A stretch of DNA of 64,000 nucleotides from Alphaproteobacteria bacterium (GCA_963665325.3 OZ224045.1:832001-896000); one strand, 5' to 3'. Counted from the first letter of the stretch, positions 14,866-30,449 are shown. Notes: generated from the letters alone by a model not told the origin. A program made the numbers and translations.

Positions 14866-15122
14866 TTCAACCCGCCCGAATGGATCGAATTGCTGGAGGA
14901 GCCGGCCCCGTCCCCCGCAGCGCGGGCGCAGCGCAACAACTCCGCAAGCGCACCCTGACGAACCTCCACAACGCCCACCCCCAATGGCTCGCCGACACGC
15001 ATGAAGTACTGGACGCTGCCGTGGCGACCGCCTACGGCTGGGACGCGGGGATTGGGGAGGAGGAAGCGCTGGGGGCGTTGCTGGAGATGAATCGAAAGGC
15101 TATCCTCCGAAGAGAACCTTAG
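14866..15122 (+). pseudogene. Remnant C-terminal tail of an MmeI/YeeA-like (type IIG/IIL) restriction-modification methyltransferase
   Basis: FNPPEWIE in one frame, then PVPR..LRKRTLTNLHNAHPQWLADTHEVLDAAVATAYGW in another; this matches the characteristic tail of the family and the rest of the gene is absent. Confidence 0.75.
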
Positions 15123-15194
15123 AAGAACATATACGCCTTCCAGAACGCGACGAACCGCTTGCGGTCTTCACAACCACCAAGAGGCTTTCCTACC

Positions 15195-15821
15195 ATGGAA
15201 CCTTTGAAATCGGTTGGAAATCTTCACGAAACTATGGCCCTTTTTGTGCCCGGACTTGTTATCTTGTTCGTGCGTTCGCAATTCGTAACAGATCGCAAGC
15301 TATCTCATTCAACGATGATCTTAAGCTACCTAACGATTTCCCTTGTATATTACGCTATTGCTTTCCCGTTCCTCGAACTGTTCCGGTCGTTATACGAAGT
15401 TAAAGATCACAAGATTCTAGTTTGGCTTGCGTTGGTATTTTTCGGGCCCGTATTGCTTGGCCTCTTGCTTGGAATCAATGTCCAGAAAAACCTGTTGCAC
15501 CGGCTACTCCAGTGGTGCGGCCTTAACCCAGTTCACTCGATCCCAACCGCATGGGATTGGAAATTCGGCAATATGACCGAACAATGGGTTCTCGTTACCC
15601 TCAAGGATGATACTCAATTTCGCGGTTTCTGTGGGCAAGGGTCTTTCATATCGTCCGATCCGACAGAGCGTGACATTTATGTCGAACAGATTTATGGTAT
15701 CGACAATGAGGACAACTGGTCCTCGCCCGGCTTGAAGGGGGTTCTCATCGCGCCCGGCGAGATCAAGACGATAGAATTCTGGCCCTACGAACCGCAAGAG
15801 GATATCAATGAGCAAAGCTGA
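15195..15821 (+). CDS. DUF6338-like membrane protein
   Basis: AT-rich ORF with about 3 TM segments (LFVPG..), then PTAWDWKF, WVLVTLKD, SFISSDPTERDIYVE, GVLI..EIKTIEF. Confidence 0.75.
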   Translation: MEPLKSVGNLHETMALFVPGLVILFVRSQFVTDRKLSHSTMILSYLTISLVYYAIAFPFLELFRSLYEVKDHKILVWLALVFFGPVLLGLLLGINVQKNLLHRLLQWCGLNPVHSIPTAWDWKFGNMTEQWVLVTLKDDTQFRGFCGQGSFISSDPTERDIYVEQIYGIDNEDNWSSPGLKGVLIAPGEIKTIEFWPYEPQEDINEQS

Positions 15822-15999
15822 TAAGCCGGTGAAGCCGCCACCGCCCCCAATCCAAAATCGGGGTTACCAGCCTGTAGCCGCTACGGACGGCTACAGGCCG
15901 CGCCCACAGGGCGGACACCAGCCCACCGCCAGTCAAGGCGCACCTGCCAAGCCGCCCTCCAACCCGCCGAACCAGGGGACTTCCGGCACGAAGGAGTAA
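15808..15999 (+). CDS. Small Pro/Gly/Gln-rich peptide with three G(Y/H)xP motifs
   Basis: GAGGA RBS, start overlaps the end of the DUF6338-like gene; RGYQP, DGYRP, GGHQP, NPPNQGTSG. Confidence 0.65.
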   Translation: MSKADKPVKPPPPPIQNRGYQPVAATDGYRPRPQGGHQPTASQGAPAKPPSNPPNQGTSGTKE

Positions 16000-16056
16000 C
16001 CGCATCCTCGCCGTTGCAACGCTTTCGTGGATTCATCCGATTGGTTCCAGCGCCTC

Positions 16057-16317: not shown

Positions 16318-16474
16318 GGCGGCGCGAACTCCGAACGGCCTTGCCGCCGGCGCGGTTCCGGCGCAGGCGGGAGCATGCACGATAGGAAGCCCGTCGCGCG
16401 CCGTCCGTGCCGGCGGCTATTCCGCCGGGTCCGCAGCTTGGTTCCTGAAATAAGATTATTTTCATACAAAAGTG

Positions 16475-16903
16475 TTGACTCCGGGACCGCCTTGCCTATA
16501 TAGGCCGTGACGAAGCGGCATCTGCGGGCCGCATCCGTTCGCGCCGGCGCGAAAATAAAGTCCCTGAGAAACTGACGGGAGACGTGCGCCCTGCGTCCGG
16601 GCTCGCGCGCGCAGGCGCAATCAGGCGCGCAAACCGCGCCGGCGCCAACGCGCCCGCCTGCGCACGCCCGCGATACGCGCGAAAAAGGGTTCCGCCGCCG
16701 GGAGGCGGGGAACGGGAAGGAGGAACGATGCAGGAGAGACCGGGCATGGCAAGGCAGGCGGCGCCCGGACCATGACAAAACATGACATTTCATGACGACC
16801 CCGGGTTCCCTGGCGGCAGGAACGGGAGAGGAATGAAGGATCGATGCAGGCAAGACAAAATAGGAATATCAATGGAACATGACCAAACATGACATTTCAT
16901 GAC
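16475..16903 (+). repeat. Dispersed structured element, copy 1 (promoter, multi-hairpin leader, RBS, mini-ORF, CATGAC x3; last module duplicated)
   Basis: Shares blocks CCCTGAGAAAC, ACGGGAGA, GCGCAATCAGG, AACCGCGCCGGCGCCAACG, CGCGATACGCGCGAAA, AGGAGGA-N3-ATG and the CATGAC repeats, in order, with the reverse complement of 27901-28579. Confidence 0.85.
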
Positions 16904-16977
16904 ATCCTCGGCGTCCGCTCCGGGAGGCGGTGGAACGCGGTCATGGCCTCATCGGCTCCGGGCCATGAACGGCGGCG

Positions 16978-19074
16978 TCAGTCCTTCCTGTCGCCGAGAA
17001 GGCCCTTCAGGCCGCGGCCGATATCCTTCACGGCGCCCTTCAGCTTGTCCCGCAATTGCCGAACCGCCTGTTCGGGCGATGCAGGGCCCGGTTGCGCCGC
17101 CGCGCCGGGTTTCGGCGGGGCGGTCGCGATCTCCAGGCACTCATTGCCCTCGCCGCCGAGCTCGCCCAGCCCCACGACTGCGGCCGGCGGGAACAGCGCG
17201 ATCCCGACGAGGCCGCCGAGCTTCTTCAGTGCCGCGCCGGCTTCGGGCCGGAATTTCGGGTTGGCGAAGGCGCCCCGGATACGGACCGGCACCGAGATAT
17301 TGAGGGTCGCGGATTTCGCGCGGGGCTCGACGGTGAGGTCGAGTGTCTCCGTCGCGAGGTTTGCCGTCCCCTTCGCGGCGACGGTCGAATATTCGGTGTC
17401 GATTAGAACCGCCCGGCTCGCCGCCCGCCCGTTCTCGATGCCGATGGAGGCGACGGCGCAGTTGACGACCGTCCATTGCTTCCGGCCTGAGAACAGCGTG
17501 CCGAGGACGGCGCTGGCGCCGCCGACCGCCGCATCGAACGCCTCCGTCTTCAGGCGGCCGCTGCCGCCCACGAGCCGGATGTCGCCGTCGAGGCCGGCCA
17601 TGAGCGCGGCGACGGACCCGCCGGAGCCCGCAAGATCGACGCTGGCCCTGGCCTTCCCTTCGAACAGGTCCGTCACGCCGGCCTCCTCCAGCAATCGGCC
17701 GAGGTCGAGTTCCGGAGCCCGGGCCGCAAGGCGGAGGCGCGGCGCCGCGCGCCGCGTATCGAGGTGGAGTTCGCCGTCCACCCGGCTTCCCGCCACAGTC
17801 GCCGAGAACGGTCTTACGGAAAGCGCGCCGTCTTCCAGGCTTATGCGGGCCTGCACCGCGCCGACCGGGACCGGATATCCGGCCAGCCTTTCGACGCTCA
17901 GCGTCAGGTCGAGATCGGCGGCCTTGAGGCCCTCCAGCGGAAGCGGGTCGTCGGGAAACACCCGGTCCTGCCTCACGTTCTTCGGCTTTGCGTCCTTGCC
18001 CGCGGCGGTCGGGCGATCGCTCGCGGCGGCCTTCGACCGCAGCCCGGCAACGTCGATCCCGGTCGACGCCAGCGTGCCGCTCACGCGCGGCCGCGGCCCC
18101 GACAGGACGAGGTCGATCCGGCCGGAAAGGTCGCTGGCGCCGAGCGCGCCCTTCAGATCCTCGAACCGGAACCTGTCGGCGCCGCCCTCGATGCGGGCGT
18201 CGAAGGCGACCGGCCCGAGCTCCGGCAGCCCCGGCCCTGCAAGCGGTGCGAGCGAGGACAGGTCCGCGCCGCGAACCGCCGCCCGGAGGTCCAGGCCCCC
18301 GGCTTTGCCGGGTTCGGCCACCGCGCCGGACAGCCGCGCCTCGAAGCCGAACGCCTTCGCATCGAGCACGAGTTCCAGCGGCCGTCCCGAAGCGATGGCC
18401 GCCAGGGAGCCGACAGTGCCCGAGGCCGAGAACGGGGCCCCGTTCCAGGCGCCGAAGGCATCGATTTCCAGCGGGGCGCCGAAGGACCCCGCCCGCGCCG
18501 ACACCCGCTCGAGTTCGAAGCGCATCTCCTCGCCGCTCCGTGCATCCCTGTAGATCAGGCGCCCCCGGCGGATTTCCACATGATTGAAGATCGGGACCGA
18601 TGGCGGCCCGCCGCCCGTCTCGTCCTTCCGTCCAGCCTCCTCTCCGGAGCGGGCGGGCGCGCCGGACCGGTCGTCCGGAGGCGGCCCGTTCCGCCAGTTG
18701 GACAGGCCGTCGGCATTGGTTTCGAGCAGGATGTCGGGTTCGACCAGGATGAGCCGGGTCACGCGGATATCGCCCGCAAGCAGCGGCAGCAATTCGACCT
18801 CCGCCTCGGCTCGTTCGAGCGCGATCATGGCCGGGCGCGAGCCCCAGTCGGCATTGGCGACGGCGACCTGCTCAACGGTGACGGCGGGCGTGAGCGAGAT
18901 CGACAGGTCGATATCGCCGCCGATGGCGAGGTCGCGGCCGGTCGCCTCGCGAAATTCCGCGGCGATCTCCTCGCGGTAGCTGTTGACGTCGATGGAATAG
19001 AGAACCGCTGCCGCGGCCGCGACGAGGACTGCGACCGCCAGCGCGGCCCATTTCAGCAGGCTGGCGACGCGCAT
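16978..19074 (-). CDS. AsmA family protein
   Basis: N-terminal TM anchor, ATGRDLAIGGDI, VANADWGS, LETNADGLSNW, VNCAVA, VPVRIRG. Confidence 0.9.
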   Translation of the reverse strand: MRVASLLKWAALAVAVLVAAAAAVLYSIDVNSYREEIAAEFREATGRDLAIGGDIDLSISLTPAVTVEQVAVANADWGSRPAMIALERAEAEVELLPLLAGDIRVTRLILVEPDILLETNADGLSNWRNGPPPDDRSGAPARSGEEAGRKDETGGGPPSVPIFNHVEIRRGRLIYRDARSGEEMRFELERVSARAGSFGAPLEIDAFGAWNGAPFSASGTVGSLAAIASGRPLELVLDAKAFGFEARLSGAVAEPGKAGGLDLRAAVRGADLSSLAPLAGPGLPELGPVAFDARIEGGADRFRFEDLKGALGASDLSGRIDLVLSGPRPRVSGTLASTGIDVAGLRSKAAASDRPTAAGKDAKPKNVRQDRVFPDDPLPLEGLKAADLDLTLSVERLAGYPVPVGAVQARISLEDGALSVRPFSATVAGSRVDGELHLDTRRAAPRLRLAARAPELDLGRLLEEAGVTDLFEGKARASVDLAGSGGSVAALMAGLDGDIRLVGGSGRLKTEAFDAAVGGASAVLGTLFSGRKQWTVVNCAVASIGIENGRAASRAVLIDTEYSTVAAKGTANLATETLDLTVEPRAKSATLNISVPVRIRGAFANPKFRPEAGAALKKLGGLVGIALFPPAAVVGLGELGGEGNECLEIATAPPKPGAAAQPGPASPEQAVRQLRDKLKGAVKDIGRGLKGLLGDRKD

Positions 19075-26040: not shown

Positions 26041-27771
26041 CTACTCGATCGACGCCTTGTCGCGCCTGTCGGTGGTGGCGAGCACGATCGGGCTGATCAC
26101 GCCCTTCGCCTTGACGTTCAGGCAGGCGGGCTTGCCGCTGGCGAGCGCGCGTTCCAGCGCCGGGCCGAGCTGCTCGCGCGTCTCTACCAGTTCGCCGTGG
26201 CCGCCCATCCCCTCGAAGATGCCGTGGAACGGGATGTCGCGGAAATCCGTGGCGAAGTGGGTGCCGCTCTCGAAGAGCCGTTCCTGTTGCTGGGAGATGC
26301 AGTCGAGGCCGCCATTGTTGTCGATCACGACCACGATGGGGCAGTCCTCCTGGAACGCCGCCTCGATGCTGAGGCCGCCCGAAAGGAAGGCGCCGTCGCC
26401 GCTGATCAGCACGACATTGCTGTCGGGATGCGTGTTCTTCGCCGAGAGCGCGAGCGACACGCCGACGCCGAGCAGCGAATAGGACCCCGGATGCAGGACG
26501 CCGGCGAGCTTCTGGCCTTCCCACCCCGCGACATTCACCGCGATCTCCGACCAGAAGTGGGTGTTGCCGCCGTCGAAGACCAGCCAGTCCTTCTCTTTCA
26601 TGGTGCGGTTGACGTCGATGGCGAGCTGCAGCGGGTGCATCTTCTCGCCCCTGGCCGCTCCCGCCTCATTGTCGGCGTCGAGGTCCGCCAGCGTCTCTTC
26701 GACCCATTCGCCGCGCTTGACGCGGTTGAGCGCGAACCAGGCCTCGTCGAACGGGGCGAGCGTCATCAGGCTGTCGAAGAAGGCGCCCGGATCGCTGAGC
26801 AACACCTCATCGGCCGCCCGGTTCAGCTCCAGCTCTTCATGGCTGCCGTTCACGCAGACCAGTTCGCAGCTTTCCGGAAACATCGGCGGGTTGCCGAAAT
26901 TCATCTGGTTGTCCAGGCGCCCGCCGACCATGACCGCCACATCGCAGTTTTCCGCGGCGAAACAATAGGGCGGATACTGGTGCCGGTCCGCGAGCCCCAT
27001 ATAGGCCTCGCTCTCCTCGCCCAGCAATTTCTGGTGATAGGGCACATTGAAGACCGGGATGTTGAGGGCCCGCCCGGCTTCTTCCAGCTTCTCCTCGTTG
27101 CCCGACCACCACACGCCATGTCCGCCGATGAGGATCGGCCGGCGCGCCCCGGCAAGCCGCTTCATCAACGGATCGAGGTCGCGCGGATCGGGCCAGGCCC
27201 GCGGAACCGGTCGGCCGGCGCGGGAAAAGGGCCGCTCGTCCCGCCCGGCATCCTCGTCCACCGAGGAGAACATGATGTCGACCGGCAGGCTGAGATGAAC
27301 CGGACCCGGATAGCCGCTTGTCGCGATCTTCCAGGCGCGGTCCACGAACTCGCCGATCCGCGTGCCGTCGGTGATGCTTGCGGAATATTTGGTGAGCGGC
27401 CCGGCGATGGCGACATCGTCGATTTCCTTGAAGCCGCCCGCGCCCTGCCGCTTCAAAGTGCTGGAGCCGGTGATGAAGATGACCGGCGAGCGTTCGCCCC
27501 AGGCTTCCATGATCGCGGGCACCGCATTGGCGAAGCCCTCCGGCCCCACCAGGCAGACGGCCGGCTTGCGGGTGATGCGCGTGTGCCCGTCCGCCAGGTG
27601 CCCGGCGACCTGCTCGTGAGGGCAGTTCACCACCCGCATCTGGCATTCCATGAAGCCTTCGAGCGCGGGGTTGCAGAACCCGCCGGCGAGCGTGAAGACA
27701 TGCTCCACCCCCTTCTCGTGAAGCGCGCGCGCCAGAACATTGCCGCCCCGGAGGCGTCTGGTTTCGGTCAT
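26041..27771 (-). CDS. Thiamine pyrophosphate-binding enzyme (acetolactate synthase / 2-hydroxyacyl-CoA lyase family)
   Basis: HEQVAGHLADG, GPVHLSLPVD, SGDGAF..VVIDNN TPP motif. Confidence 0.85.
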   Translation of the reverse strand: MTETRRLRGGNVLARALHEKGVEHVFTLAGGFCNPALEGFMECQMRVVNCPHEQVAGHLADGHTRITRKPAVCLVGPEGFANAVPAIMEAWGERSPVIFITGSSTLKRQGAGGFKEIDDVAIAGPLTKYSASITDGTRIGEFVDRAWKIATSGYPGPVHLSLPVDIMFSSVDEDAGRDERPFSRAGRPVPRAWPDPRDLDPLMKRLAGARRPILIGGHGVWWSGNEEKLEEAGRALNIPVFNVPYHQKLLGEESEAYMGLADRHQYPPYCFAAENCDVAVMVGGRLDNQMNFGNPPMFPESCELVCVNGSHEELELNRAADEVLLSDPGAFFDSLMTLAPFDEAWFALNRVKRGEWVEETLADLDADNEAGAARGEKMHPLQLAIDVNRTMKEKDWLVFDGGNTHFWSEIAVNVAGWEGQKLAGVLHPGSYSLLGVGVSLALSAKNTHPDSNVVLISGDGAFLSGGLSIEAAFQEDCPIVVVIDNNGGLDCISQQQERLFESGTHFATDFRDIPFHGIFEGMGGHGELVETREQLGPALERALASGKPACLNVKAKGVISPIVLATTDRRDKASIE

Positions 27772-28024
27772 CCGACGATCCCCATACCGATCAAGGGCGC
27801 AGTATAGCCGGCCCGTAGAGAAGCGGGAGATACGCGCCGGGGCGGCGTTCCGGTCCGGCAATGCAAGGCAGGCCGGCCCGGGGGCCCACTCCAGCGGGGT
27901 GTCATGAAGTGTCATGTTTTGTCATGAGGCCCGCCGGAAATGTCATGCTTTGTCATGCGGTCCGCCGCGCAAGCGGGGGAGGCGGAAATGAGGTGCGGAA
28001 AGGACGGGCCGGCTCCATGGAAAA

Positions 28025-28060
28025 CCCCTCTCCCGATTGCGGGAGAGGATGGGAGAGGGC
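28025..28060. repeat. REP-like palindrome
   Basis: CCTCTCCCG-attg-CGGGAGAGG-atGGGAGAGGG; related copies at 28217-28249 and, degenerate, at about 34995-35017. Confidence 0.65.
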
Positions 28061-28098
28061 CTCACGGCGTGACGGGTCTTTGCCGGGCTTCGCCCGCC

Positions 28099-28195
28099 GC
28101 CGCACTGAACGCGGTGGACGATACGAATAGCGGCGTTGGCACGGCCGCGCTGAACGCGGCGGACGATGCGAATGGCGGCGTTGGCGCCGCCGCGC
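28099..28195. repeat. 45-bp tandem duplication (two imperfect copies plus a partial third)
   Basis: gccgcactgaacgcggtggacgatacgaatagcggcgttggcacg / gccgcgctgaacgcggcggacgatgcgaatggcggcgttggcgcc. Confidence 0.9.
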
Positions 28196-28216
28196 TTCCG
28201 CTGGCGCGGAAGCGGA

Positions 28217-28249
28217 CCCCCACCCGACCTCCCCCGCGAGCGGGGGAGG
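28217..28249. repeat. REP-like palindrome, opposite orientation to 28025-28060
   Basis: CCCCCACCCGA-CCTCCCCCGC-ga-GCGGGGGAGG. Confidence 0.65.
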
Positions 28250-28683
28250 CGGAAAGAGGGGCAGACGGCTCGCTGGCGGACAGCGTCCGGGACGACGACA
28301 GGGGCGTATTGCTTCATCGGTCCTCCTCCTTGTCCTTCCCGCCGCCGTCCTGCCTGCGGCGGGTCCCTGTTTCGCGCGTATCGCGCGCGGGCGGGGGCGC
28401 CCGTTGGCGCCGGCGCGGTTCGCGCACCTGATTGCGCGCGCGAGGCGACGGACGCACCTCTCCCGTGCGTTTCTCAGGGGGTTTTCGAAAATGACGCCGC
28501 CCGGCCGCACGACGCCGGAGAAGCGGCTCCGGATACCGCTTCTTCCGGCTTCATACTAGCATATTTTCCCTGATGTCAAGCAATTTTGCGAACAAAAAGT
28601 AAAAACACCAGAAATTTTTCAACTCGCAAAGGCGCTCAATCGACGACTCACACCAGCGGTCGTCGATCGGAACCTGTGCCGAC

Positions 28684-28811
28684 TGCCTCCGGACCGCGGT
28701 CAGAAGCGGTCGAACAGGGCTTGCAGCTCTTCGGGGTCGCGGGTGCGGACGGGGCCGAGCATGACGAGGACCCACGCCTTCCGGACGGTCTGGTTGTCGG
28801 CGAGTACCGTG
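28684..28811 (-). pseudogene. Diverged duplicate of the asparaginase 3' end (30434-30561)
   Basis: Colinear and ungapped at an offset of 1750 bp; encodes TVLADNQTVRKAWVLVMLGPVRTRDPEELQALFDRF* versus TVLADNLTVQKARILLMLGLARTKDPEELQAMFERF*. Confidence 0.9.
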
Positions 28812-29078
28812 TGCCGTCCAATCTGCCAAACGAATAGGGCACCTCGACGCATGGGAAGCGCTCCAGTGGGCCGAGTTTACCTTTCTCCAACCCCAACTGG
28901 CGAGCTAGGACCGTCGCACACCGGCGACCCGTCGGTCTTGTAGAGACTATCCGACGAGGTATCCATTGAGACACTTTCCTCCTCATCACCCACAGACATA
29001 ATTCTCCAATCAGAATCTCCGCTACGCCGCAAGGGACTCCCGGCGCCTGCATCGTGTCTATGTCCACTCTCCATTGTT

Positions 29079-30269
29079 TCACTCGACCAGTGGCTCCTCA
29101 TCATAGGGGCAGTAATCTTCCGGTTCAAAGACGTCGATCTCGCCGAGATCAATGTAATAATCTTTAGTGCTGACCTCGACATCTACAAGCGTGATATCTT
29201 CTCTTCCGGTACCTTGGCCTTGGACATCGATCACGATGATCACCTCGGTATCTATGTCTTCTCTAACCTCAATCGTCCGTCCTCCCATAGGTATCGACTC
29301 TTTATCAACTCCGTCCCAAAACGAAAAGTTTACTTCAACTGGTATTTTCACAATTAATACTAACGGCAAGCTTACAACCAGTCCAAGCTCTTCCCCATTC
29401 TCTCGGGGCTCTACTTCGATAATGTCTATCTCATCTTCAAGTGGCAAAGCAACGCTCTCAAGCTCTCCCGCCCAAGCATACAATTCGCATCCGCCCATGG
29501 ACGGAGTGGCATTTGCGTCGAATTCTATGACCTCCACCTTGCTGGTCAAATGCGACATTAAATCCGAGGTTCCATCGACTTCCCCCTCCAACCAATCAAA
29601 AACAGATCTCCTTAAAATCGGCGGCGCATTAGCCACAAGAGCAAGCGCCCGTTCGATGTTCGGCACCAGATAAAGTCGCTCTGAGTTCTTACAAAAAGCA
29701 CTCCAATCACCATCCTTCGAGACAACTAAGATACCGATGTCATGATCCGTCGCCGTTCGTTCTAGTGCGTTGAGAGCGAGTGCATCTGGAAATTCTGTCT
29801 TCTTCTTGCCGGCCCCGAATGGTGCTCGCTTGGCAAAGTAATCTTCGAAAAGCGTCGCGGTATCTACAAGCTCTCTATCGTTCAATATCTCGCATCCTGT
29901 ATCTTTTACGTATACGCTAAATTGCTCCTGCGCCGCTTGGGTTGGATTACGGCCCTTGGTTATCTTGTCCAAGAGTTGATCTCTAGTAGGGTCCTTAGTT
30001 TCAAATACATGAAGCGCTTGACCAATTGCCTTTTTTGCCGACCTCAACGCTTGCGAAGCAGCGTCGTCGAGGTGCCCAATTACTTCTCTAGCGACAGTGT
30101 CAGCCAGCATAAAGCGGAATCCATGACCGCTTAGACGAGCGAGAGATCGAAGCGTTACCGAGTTAAGGTGTAGCTGCTTTTCATCAAATATGTTCGTATC
30201 TATCGTAAGGGCATTAACCTCGCCTGCGGAAAGTGCCGCGCGGAGTCCATCGTCATCAAGTATTGGCAT
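29079..30269 (-). CDS. PIN-domain protein (DUF4935/PIN-like), AT-rich, probably acquired horizontally
   Basis: TIDTNIFD, VAREV, PFG..KKTEFPDALAL, VVSKDGDW acidic tetrad; long acidic C-terminal domain. Confidence 0.8.
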   Translation of the reverse strand: MPILDDDGLRAALSAGEVNALTIDTNIFDEKQLHLNSVTLRSLARLSGHGFRFMLADTVAREVIGHLDDAASQALRSAKKAIGQALHVFETKDPTRDQLLDKITKGRNPTQAAQEQFSVYVKDTGCEILNDRELVDTATLFEDYFAKRAPFGAGKKKTEFPDALALNALERTATDHDIGILVVSKDGDWSAFCKNSERLYLVPNIERALALVANAPPILRRSVFDWLEGEVDGTSDLMSHLTSKVEVIEFDANATPSMGGCELYAWAGELESVALPLEDEIDIIEVEPRENGEELGLVVSLPLVLIVKIPVEVNFSFWDGVDKESIPMGGRTIEVREDIDTEVIIVIDVQGQGTGREDITLVDVEVSTKDYYIDLGEIDVFEPEDYCPYDEEPLVE

Positions 30270-30449
30270 GTGAGTGGCTCACCGCTTGAAGTTTAGCCGG
30301 CAATCAAGATGCAGAGGTCATCCGAAGACAACCTAAGCTAAACGTTTTCGGCCACCGGGTGACTGTCGACTAATTCAGTCATCCTCGTTCGGATGTTTGG
30401 GCTTAACGATTTGGCGCTTCCGGCCCAAGACGATGCCTCCGGACCGCCC

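Follow-up and report, generated by a model that had tools for sequence, protein, structure and literature searches.

The window analyzed here, by which we mean the full 64,000-nt stretch of an alphaproteobacterial genome (GCA_963665325.3 OZ224045.1:832001-896000), contains two non-coding stretches, copy 1 (16440-16760, plus strand) and copy 2 (28290-28610, minus strand), with the glcDEF genes, which are served by neither, located between them. Copy 1 is convergent with an AsmA-like gene and faces its 3′-end (16978-19074, minus strand), while copy 2 is found upstream of the gene for a TPP-dependent enzyme. The two stretches align with 78% column identity, and in a BLAST search of the whole genome copy 1 matches copy 2 at E 2.3e-29. 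The initial annotation had described an ordered series of blocks common to the two inverted stretches, and these blocks are present in the alignment. It had also noted that the terminal hairpins differ, copy 1 having CCGCC/GGCGG and copy 2 CCCGCCGC/GCGGCGGG, and that AGGAGGA-N-ATG occurs in both, which is what we find. The stretch is non-coding as it had proposed, with no conserved protein frame, and belongs to no family in Rfam: the whole window gave 0 matches at gathering scores, and at permissive thresholds the best hits around the two copies (E 0.98-5.6) were far below gathering and at chance level. A low-GC patch (29001-30300; 48.5% vs. ~68%) with a gene for a PIN_12-domain protein (29079-30269, minus strand) sits just upstream of the copy 2 locus and is probably foreign DNA. 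A second patch of lower GC content (15001-16000; 53%), containing a DUF6338 gene (15159-15821), adjoins the copy 1 locus.

On the plus strand, copy 1 begins with an AT-rich module (16438-16474), which the family alignment and its information profile identify as the 5′ conserved block of the family, conservation across copies beginning ~40 nt upstream of the -35. It is followed by a promoter-like signal (16475-16502) consisting of TTGACT (16475-16480), a 16-nt spacer and TATATA (16497-16502), and then by a 5′ hairpin (GAAGCGGC / GCCGCATC; 16512-16535) and a second hairpin (CGCGCCGGCGCG; 16540-16551), which are helices 1 and 3 of the covariation count described below; an alternative pairing of the second hairpin with 16635-16650 is possible. 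The GC-rich core (16562-16689), defined by column conservation, is the part on which our covariance model R1 was built, and includes a near-invariant block (16615-16646; column conservation 0.9-1.0) and the sequence CGCGATACGCGCG..AGGG (16668-16689). Next comes the terminal GC hairpin CCGCC..GGCGG (16692-16708), with no T-run after it on the plus strand, and a purine-rich SD-like stretch with a 15-codon frame (16717-16775; ATG at 16728, stop at 16773-16775). Three CATGAC units in 10-nt phase (16771-16796) precede a duplicated 3′ module with the right end (16797-16930), in which a second CATGAC array is found (16878-16903). The double 3′ module is also present in a paralog (C1:270668-270893) and in a copy from congener G002 (L015, 84.5% over 414 nt). 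When the terminal hairpin at 16692-16708 is read on the minus strand, where it is followed by AACCCTTTTT, it scores as an intrinsic terminator; as this hairpin lies ~270 nt past the convergent AsmA-like gene, the copy 1 unit may double as the terminator of that gene.

Copy 2 has the same parts on the minus strand. Its AT-rich module and promoter-like signal (28553-28640) comprise TTGACA (28579-28574), a 15-nt spacer and TG-n-TAGTAT (28558-28553), and are followed, within 28338-28546, by the 5′ hairpin (28546-28517), the core with the invariant block (28437-28406) and CGCGATACGCGCG..AGGG (28389-28365), and the terminal hairpin (28363-28338); this copy corresponds to the nhmmer hit C1:860548-860337 and the R1 hit C1:860365-860461. 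The variable 3′ module (27880-28337) contains nested small repeats, CATGAC arrays (27957-27901) and the right end with GGAGTGGGCCCC; one of the nested repeats and one tandem unit are missing from its counterpart in congener G011. In the orthologous-locus comparison the whole block from 27782 to 28699 is missing from congeners G010 and G006. The longest ORF of the TPP enzyme (26041-27915, minus strand) starts at an ATG of the CATGAC array, and comparison with G010 and G006 places the true start 48 codons downstream, at the ATG 27771-27769. The suggestion that each copy supplies its own ribosome binding site to a gene does not survive inspection of either copy. In copy 1, the ATG at 16728 opens the 15-codon frame, which closes in the first CATGAC unit of the array and shows no sign of translation, and the next real gene (16978-19074) is on the opposite strand. 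In copy 2, the ATG at 28317 opens a 124-codon frame that runs through the nested small repeats, is not called by our codon-usage gene caller, and lies inside the block missing from the two congeners.

The element had been described as present twice, which turns out to be a large underestimate. Iterated nhmmer searches, run to convergence, gave 69 hits at E<=1e-5, of which 62 are full length, in the window's own genome (G000; 5.58 Mb, 5 contigs), and R1, built from the cores of 76 copies of several genomes, gave 67; in the BLAST search with copy 1 the best 40 of 145 candidate matches were scored. The search of relatives that the initial annotation had recommended was equally productive. The order-wide scan with R1 covered 16 congeners and 20 genomes from two sister genera, and detected 18 to >100 copies in 13 of the 16 congeners, zero in the other three, and none in the 20 sister-genus genomes, while BLAST gave copies in 14 of the 16 congeners. 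An exact-pattern scan of ~186,000 species genomes matched at least 99 stretches, and among the matches listed all titles but one were 'MAG: Alphaproteobacteria bacterium'. The invariant-block pattern had no exact match in the IMG/VR viral contigs, and BLAST with copy 1 found nothing among the PLSDB plasmids. Among 22 public runs listed for the window there is no RNA run; the DNA runs that contain it include sponge metagenomes, and the host genus is apparently sponge-associated. In four public DNA runs contigs break in the repeat and read depth spikes over the core, and no usable empty-site joint was obtained from them. The copies in the genome have a median pairwise identity of 76.7%, with a median of 86.3% to the nearest paralog. 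As no pair reaches 95%, most copies, and with them the family, are old by this sequence-based measure.

The unit is directional, with an estimated size of 406-1414 nt (median ~515). From 5′ to 3′ it consists of the AT-rich block from ~40 nt upstream of the -35, then GGCTTGAC, 15-16 nt and TG-n-TAnnAT, a hairpin GGAAGCGGC...GCCGCTTCC at the expected transcript start, a short GC hairpin with an A-run, and the GC-rich core, in which a ~32-nt block is 90-100% conserved in every copy and is followed by CGCGATACGCGCG-AAAcAGGG. After the core come the terminal GC hairpin and a purine/GGA-rich variable module that falls into sub-groups, in some of which tandem 47-nt sub-repeats or other small repeats are nested. 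The 3′ part contains 2-4 CATGAC(A) units spaced exactly 10 nt, and the right end lies ~25-50 nt past this array, often with GGAGTGGGCCCC within it. Conservation of the core block is 0.9-1.0 in 63 copies, against the 77% median pairwise identity, and a block this close to invariant in copies that are otherwise only ~77% alike is not compatible with neutral decay. Its complement was found elsewhere in the genome only as short GC-rich, chance-level matches and as the halves of split elements. Small ORFs starting MPKT... (~41 aa) follow the SD-like stretch in roughly 10 of 31 copies, with a frame that is broken in many; that they are coding is possible, though unsupported. Two kinds of nested repeat can be described, a tandem one of ~47 nt (GGCGGCG.CAACGCCGCCAT.CG.A..GT.CGCCGCGTTC.GCGC; ~30 BLAST hits genome-wide) and a palindromic one of ~45 nt (CCTCC...CGCGGGGGAGG). 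Both occur in the window at 28140-28270 (minus strand) and in many other units, and one of each is what the orthologous G011 copy lacks.

The CATGAC array is closely tied to the core. Exact CATGAC-N4-CATGAC pairs are found 157 times in the genome, 132 of them within 1.5 kb downstream of a core and on the same strand, and 62 of the 69 cores have such a same-strand downstream array. Since 10 equals 1 modulo 3, the array places both TGA and ATG in all three frames. Thus, every frame internal to the unit ends in ...HD(K/R/E)T*, and ORF callers extend downstream genes back to a start of the type 'MT.HD', an artefactual extension seen not only in the TPP-enzyme gene. Several other genes of the same genome carry it.

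The promoter-like blocks singled out by the initial annotation are real and conserved across the family. Across the 62 full-length copies, no columns in the 5′ 100 nt are better kept than TTG and TA..AT, so that, by the criterion of sequence conservation, each unit would contain a -35/-10 pair that reads outwards. A scan for E. coli-type promoters gave 0 sites in either window copy; the low scores are explained by the 15-16-nt spacer and, in copy 1, by TATATA. We take this spacing together with the TG extension to suit alphaproteobacterial housekeeping promoters. The signal is preserved to the same degree in the 43 copies followed by a co-oriented gene (-35, 4.44 of 5; -10, 3.44 of 4) and in the 19 without one (-35, 4.37 of 5; -10, 3.26 of 4), which argues that selection is not only on expression of the neighbor. 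Neither window copy has a terminator on the sense strand after its terminal hairpin or its array, and we accordingly rejected a family of trans-acting sRNA genes, for which an intrinsic-terminator 3′-end on that strand was looked for in these copies.

For the analysis of RNA structure, pieces predicted block by block with RNAalifold on an 81-sequence MAFFT alignment were assembled into one structure. Cells changed on both sides of a pair numbered 119, compared to 40.2 +/- 8.4 in shuffled alignments (0 of 500 reached 119), and were concentrated in helices 1 and 3. In the 5′ hairpin (helix 1) 5 of 10 pairs had changes on both sides and 88% of cells pair; in the second hairpin (helix 3) this applied to 4 of 5 pairs. 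All cells (100%) of the GGCGCG/CGCGCC helix pair, 33 of them as U.G, a variant that suits the sense strand. No covariation was seen in the other core helices, which are either invariant or mismatched, and because the core is near-invariant as primary sequence it gives no covariation evidence either way. Folding of the whole alignment with RNAalifold was weak (-16.4 kcal/mol, covariation term -0.8, 1 of 18 pairs double-changed), the HMM-column alignment gave GC-driven helices with no covariation in the core, and a naive all-pairs covariation screen was dominated by noise. The earlier proposal that stems persist while linkers diverge thus holds for the first two hairpins and fails elsewhere, and selection on structure, which it took to act on the RNA or ssDNA, is borne out by compensatory changes in the 5′ hairpins and not in the core, which is conserved as primary sequence. 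Of the checks that it called for, the one for covariation among copies was positive in the two 5′ hairpins, and the Rfam search gave no match. A possible switch in which CCCUGA pairs with either UCAGG or CAGGG finds no backing: only the CC/GG part is kept, with no covariation, and the two pairings form in 59.5% and 60.0% of cells, which shuffled alignments do as well.

Genes were called with our own codon-usage caller, whose calls cover 84-89% of each contig and place all 69 hits in intergenic positions. In 49 copies the gene downstream has the orientation of the unit, and 20 have no co-oriented gene. Units between tandem genes share the direction of the genes in 33 cases and oppose it in 6, and a further 16 copies are found in divergent and 14 in convergent gaps. 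The genes downstream are unrelated to one another, which had been remarked for the two window copies and holds across all 67-69.

The unit is variably present at orthologous loci. At the H+-PPase locus, 4 nt separate the upstream stop codon from the conserved leader in congener G016, compared to ~530 nt in the window's genome, where the block starts ~45 nt before the AT-rich module and ends 29 nt after the final CATGAC. At the TPP-enzyme locus the distance from the upstream stop to the TPP start is 37 nt in G010 and G006 and ~900 nt in the window's genome and G011; these last two, when aligned, share ~96% identity as far as about column 690 (95.7% in the flanks), and what distinguishes them is a single nested small repeat and a single tandem unit. 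At the asmA-like locus, where five congeners offered 590 nt or more of downstream flank, G015 alone has a core. The genes at loci where relatives lack the element are 90-96% identical. These empty sites in relatives indicate that the unit is, or was, mobile, as far as comparison of sequences can tell; in principle the differences could also be precise deletions. The idea of a non-autonomous mobile element, offered by the initial annotation as an alternative, was thus close to the mark for a sequence that is high-copy, genus-restricted, intergenic and absent from its sites in relatives. No target-site duplication was found at the H+-PPase or TPP junctions, the two loci compared, and the two window copies have no terminal inverted repeats, only internal GC-rich inverted pairs. 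The left end is not enriched for CATGAC or GTCATG (5 and 7 of 66 copies, vs. a 5-6% background), and the window flanks show no synteny with the best cross-genome core matches. As to the recombinase, RT and nuclease genes for which the copies were to be checked, none of the copies has a neighboring recombinase that belongs to the unit, and the lone RT of the genome is far from any copy. The Y1/RAYT transposase (PF01797) had 0 matches in this 100%-complete genome, with control genomes positive. No copy carries a transposase, and the only cargo ORFs encode a terminase small subunit (TerS)-like helix-turn-helix (HTH) protein and another protein of ~150-190 aa.

The first of these cargo genes, an ORF of 326 aa, is found in five copies in the window's genome between the core and the CATGAC array, directly upstream of the latter; other units carry the different, ~150-190-aa protein. 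Its first 80 residues match a Terminase_2-type HTH (E 4.7e-12) and the PHROG terminase small subunit (8e-14), and the AF2 model of the protein (mean pLDDT 59) is confident only at the N-terminal HTH, the rest being predicted as helical or disordered. The TerS-like gene is multi-copy (5-17 matches) in 12 of the 16 congeners, and missing from the three family-less congeners and from G009, which has 46 copies of the unit. The five full paralogs in the window's genome share 92-93% amino acid identity, compared to 78-84% with the copies of G011 and G005, from which we infer that they were amplified or homogenized after the species split. The protein database holds 332 relatives, all of the same length class, and two of the relative clusters are named 'terminase small subunit [Alphaproteobacteria bacterium]'. 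At the locus of one TerS-carrying copy, the right flank is a fragment of another transposase, and in G011 a right-end fragment is found at that site.

Other mobile DNA has repeatedly entered the units. An IS110-family IS of 1687 bp with a 463-aa DEDD transposase is present twice in the genome (C1:1706328-1708014 and C1:1919577-1921261), and 2 of 2 copies lie within CATGACA arrays, each in a different unit, where they run antisense to the unit between flanking CATGACA sequences. A different IS110-family gene (C4:1062903) is located within 2 kb of another unit, so that 3 of 8 IS110-family genes adjoin units. These copies are separate insertions into the array, not parts of the unit, and we therefore rejected a relation to IS110 bridge RNA or IS200/605 omega RNA, for which no copy adjoins a recombinase of its own and no Rfam hit was obtained. 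An integrase island, encoding a tyrosine integrase with an Arm-type N-terminus, has entered two different units (C1:777140-817134 and C4:14298) at the identical point (GCGATAC|) of the CGCGATA|CGCGCG core hairpin. One of these split units, in the stretch C1:777140-817134 that ends ~15 kb before the window, has its 3′ half ~40 kb downstream, at C1:817134. Beside the unit at the lepA locus there is a sequence of ~800 bp (L153 3005-3801; G000 C1:1400504-1401300), presumably another IS, of which at least 11 copies with 86-93% identity are found in G016.

Taken together, we consider it probable, though well short of certain, that both stretches are copies of a genus-restricted, directional, modular and currently or recently mobile intergenic repeat with its own housekeeping-type promoter. 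Transcription would proceed rightwards from the promoter of each copy and give a GC-rich RNA led by a stabilizing 5′ stem-loop. With no terminator on the sense strand it would run out of the unit, which could in this way act as a portable promoter with a long 5′ leader for the downstream gene, and the phased array would close any frame opened inside the unit before the neighboring gene is reached. A role as portable promoter cannot account for the whole function, given the 20 of 69 copies with no co-oriented gene ahead of them. We suggest that selection maintains the invariant core once a copy has inserted, most likely in the role of a recognition surface, in RNA or DNA, for a protein of the host or the element, and that the youngest copies are those with the 326-aa TerS-like HTH ORF, which may represent the autonomous form. 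A stronger version, in which the repeat is a directional mobile transcription unit of an undescribed class whose core, as RNA or folded ssDNA, is the active or recognized part in mobilization, with the TerS copies autonomous and the CATGAC array as end signal, seems to us distinctly unlikely.

The near-invariance of the core, compared to ~77% identity elsewhere, argues for post-insertion selection at every copy, and could also mean that mobility was only an ancient spread and that the units are now a host-domesticated RNA regulon, the transcripts being kept as cis leaders that a single RNA-binding protein recognizes in common, or else as sponge or trans-acting RNAs, with the invariant block and the GGA-rich/CAUGAC tail as the protein-binding parts. 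This fits with a promoter that is kept equally where no downstream gene can profit, with U.G variants that suit the sense strand, and with the age of a family in which no pair is at least 95% identical. We nevertheless hold it to be unlikely, if worth keeping in mind, as no sense-strand terminator defines a 3′-end for the RNA, the core does not covary, nothing else in the genome is convincingly complementary to the invariant block, and three congeners manage without any copy of the family; furthermore, block-wise gain and loss between close species suits a selfish element better than an essential regulon. Selection on the core and arrays could instead act on duplex DNA, the transcript being incidental, with the TerS-like HTH protein (at a packaging or transduction start) or a nucleoid or regulatory protein as candidate binders. 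The 10-bp phase of the CATGAC arrays is one helical turn, as is typical of arrays of DNA-binding sites, a multi-copy TerS-like ORF lies directly upstream of the array in five copies, and recombinases do use sequences of the unit, the IS110-family element CATGACA and the integrase island CGCGATA|CGCGCG in two copies. On the other hand, the 5′ hairpins, with their compensatory changes and U.G rather than A.C variants, speak for a sense molecule in single-stranded form, G009 keeps its 46 copies without any TerS-like gene, no link between the family and capsid genes was found, and the core pattern is missing from IMG/VR viral contigs, as is any match from PLSDB plasmids, so that we regard this explanation as rather improbable.

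Both window copies are near glycolate/glyoxylate-type genes (glcDEF and the TPP enzyme) and consist of ordered conserved blocks upstream of a start codon, and the initial annotation had accordingly considered a riboswitch-like or gene-specific cis-regulatory leader common to two operons. Copy number and genomic context refute this, and we give it next to no credence: the 67-69 copies adjoin unrelated genes, 20 of 69 lack a co-oriented downstream gene and copy 1 itself points at the 3′-end of a gene that converges on it, the corresponding loci of relatives are without the element despite 90-96% identity of the genes there, the switch pairings are not conserved, and there is no match to an Rfam family. 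A riboswitch was rejected on the grounds of copy number, alternative pairings and the absence of a sense-strand terminator from the two window copies. The unit is thus neither a riboswitch nor specific to the nearby glycolate or TPP-enzyme genes.

If the repeat is what we propose, ~0.6% of the genome would consist of self-promoted units in one genus of uncultured Alphaproteobacteria, handing a promoter and a long leader to any gene that they land before and thereby providing a natural rewiring of transcription. The build would be unusual for a bacterial repeat, with an invariant center in place of invariant ends, no inverted ends and no target duplication, and with an optional DNA-binding cargo gene and a 3′ array of stops and starts in three frames. 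We point out that the family also breaks short-read assemblies, creates false N-terminal extensions of downstream genes, and offers insertion sites to an IS110-family element and to an integrase island. In this last respect it is not alone. REP/REPIN sequences are targets of IS110-family elements, and tRNA and tmRNA genes are attachment sites for integrases. The unit resembles both in offering conserved, multi-copy, structured intergenic sites that are safe for site-specific recombinases. REPs are palindromes of 20-40 nt that are mobilized by RAYT transposases. The unit described here differs in its size of 0.4-1.4 kb, its promoter-like signal and a genome with no Y1/RAYT gene; with PF01797 absent and units of 406-1414 nt, not short palindromes, we rejected an assignment to REP/REPIN.

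Closer parallels are found among promoter-bearing MITEs, a known kind of element that includes Correia of Neisseria, MITEAba12, BrickBuilt, QMITE1 and SonMITE_1 (PMC10969869; PMC3575422). Such MITEs are described as high-copy, non-coding and mostly intergenic, a few hundred bp long, with sigma70-like promoters and structured transcripts, and able to alter the expression of neighboring genes (PMC10969869; PMC3575422). On that description the unit is alike in being a high-copy intergenic repeat with a promoter-like signal and a structured transcript, here predicted, and like classical MITEs it is a small non-coding sequence that occurs between genes in many copies and whose insertions are polymorphic among relatives. 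It does not have classical MITE ends, neither terminal inverted repeats (window copies) nor target duplication (two loci) being found. It also differs from Correia and the other MITEs in being strictly directional, with a near-invariant central core instead of conserved ends, and in that some units carry the 326-aa ORF and a related autonomous IS was not found. The BOX elements of Streptococcus pneumoniae have a mosaic boxA-boxB(n)-boxC structure, with larger copies that contain ORFs and with clustering with other repeats, in the account given by one source (PMC10969869). As far as that account goes, the unit is like BOX and BIMEs in having conserved 5′ and 3′ modules, a variable middle with tandem sub-repeats, and nested small repeats. 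It has no sequence relation to BOX, and is set apart by its promoter-like signal at a fixed place and its 10-nt-phased hexamer array; to our knowledge, BOX has neither a fixed conserved promoter nor such an array. Putative mobile promoters (Nijveen, Matus-Garcia, van Passel) are described as near-identical promoter regions before non-homologous genes, defined as a set at at least 92% identity over 50 bp and mobilized by an unknown mechanism (PMC3575422). To the extent of that description, the reuse of a promoter region upstream of non-homologous genes is common to both, while the units described here are more diverged (median 77%), much longer, and have defined modules and boundaries. In conclusion, the repeat represents a new family of a known general kind, the promoter-carrying interspersed repeats of bacteria.
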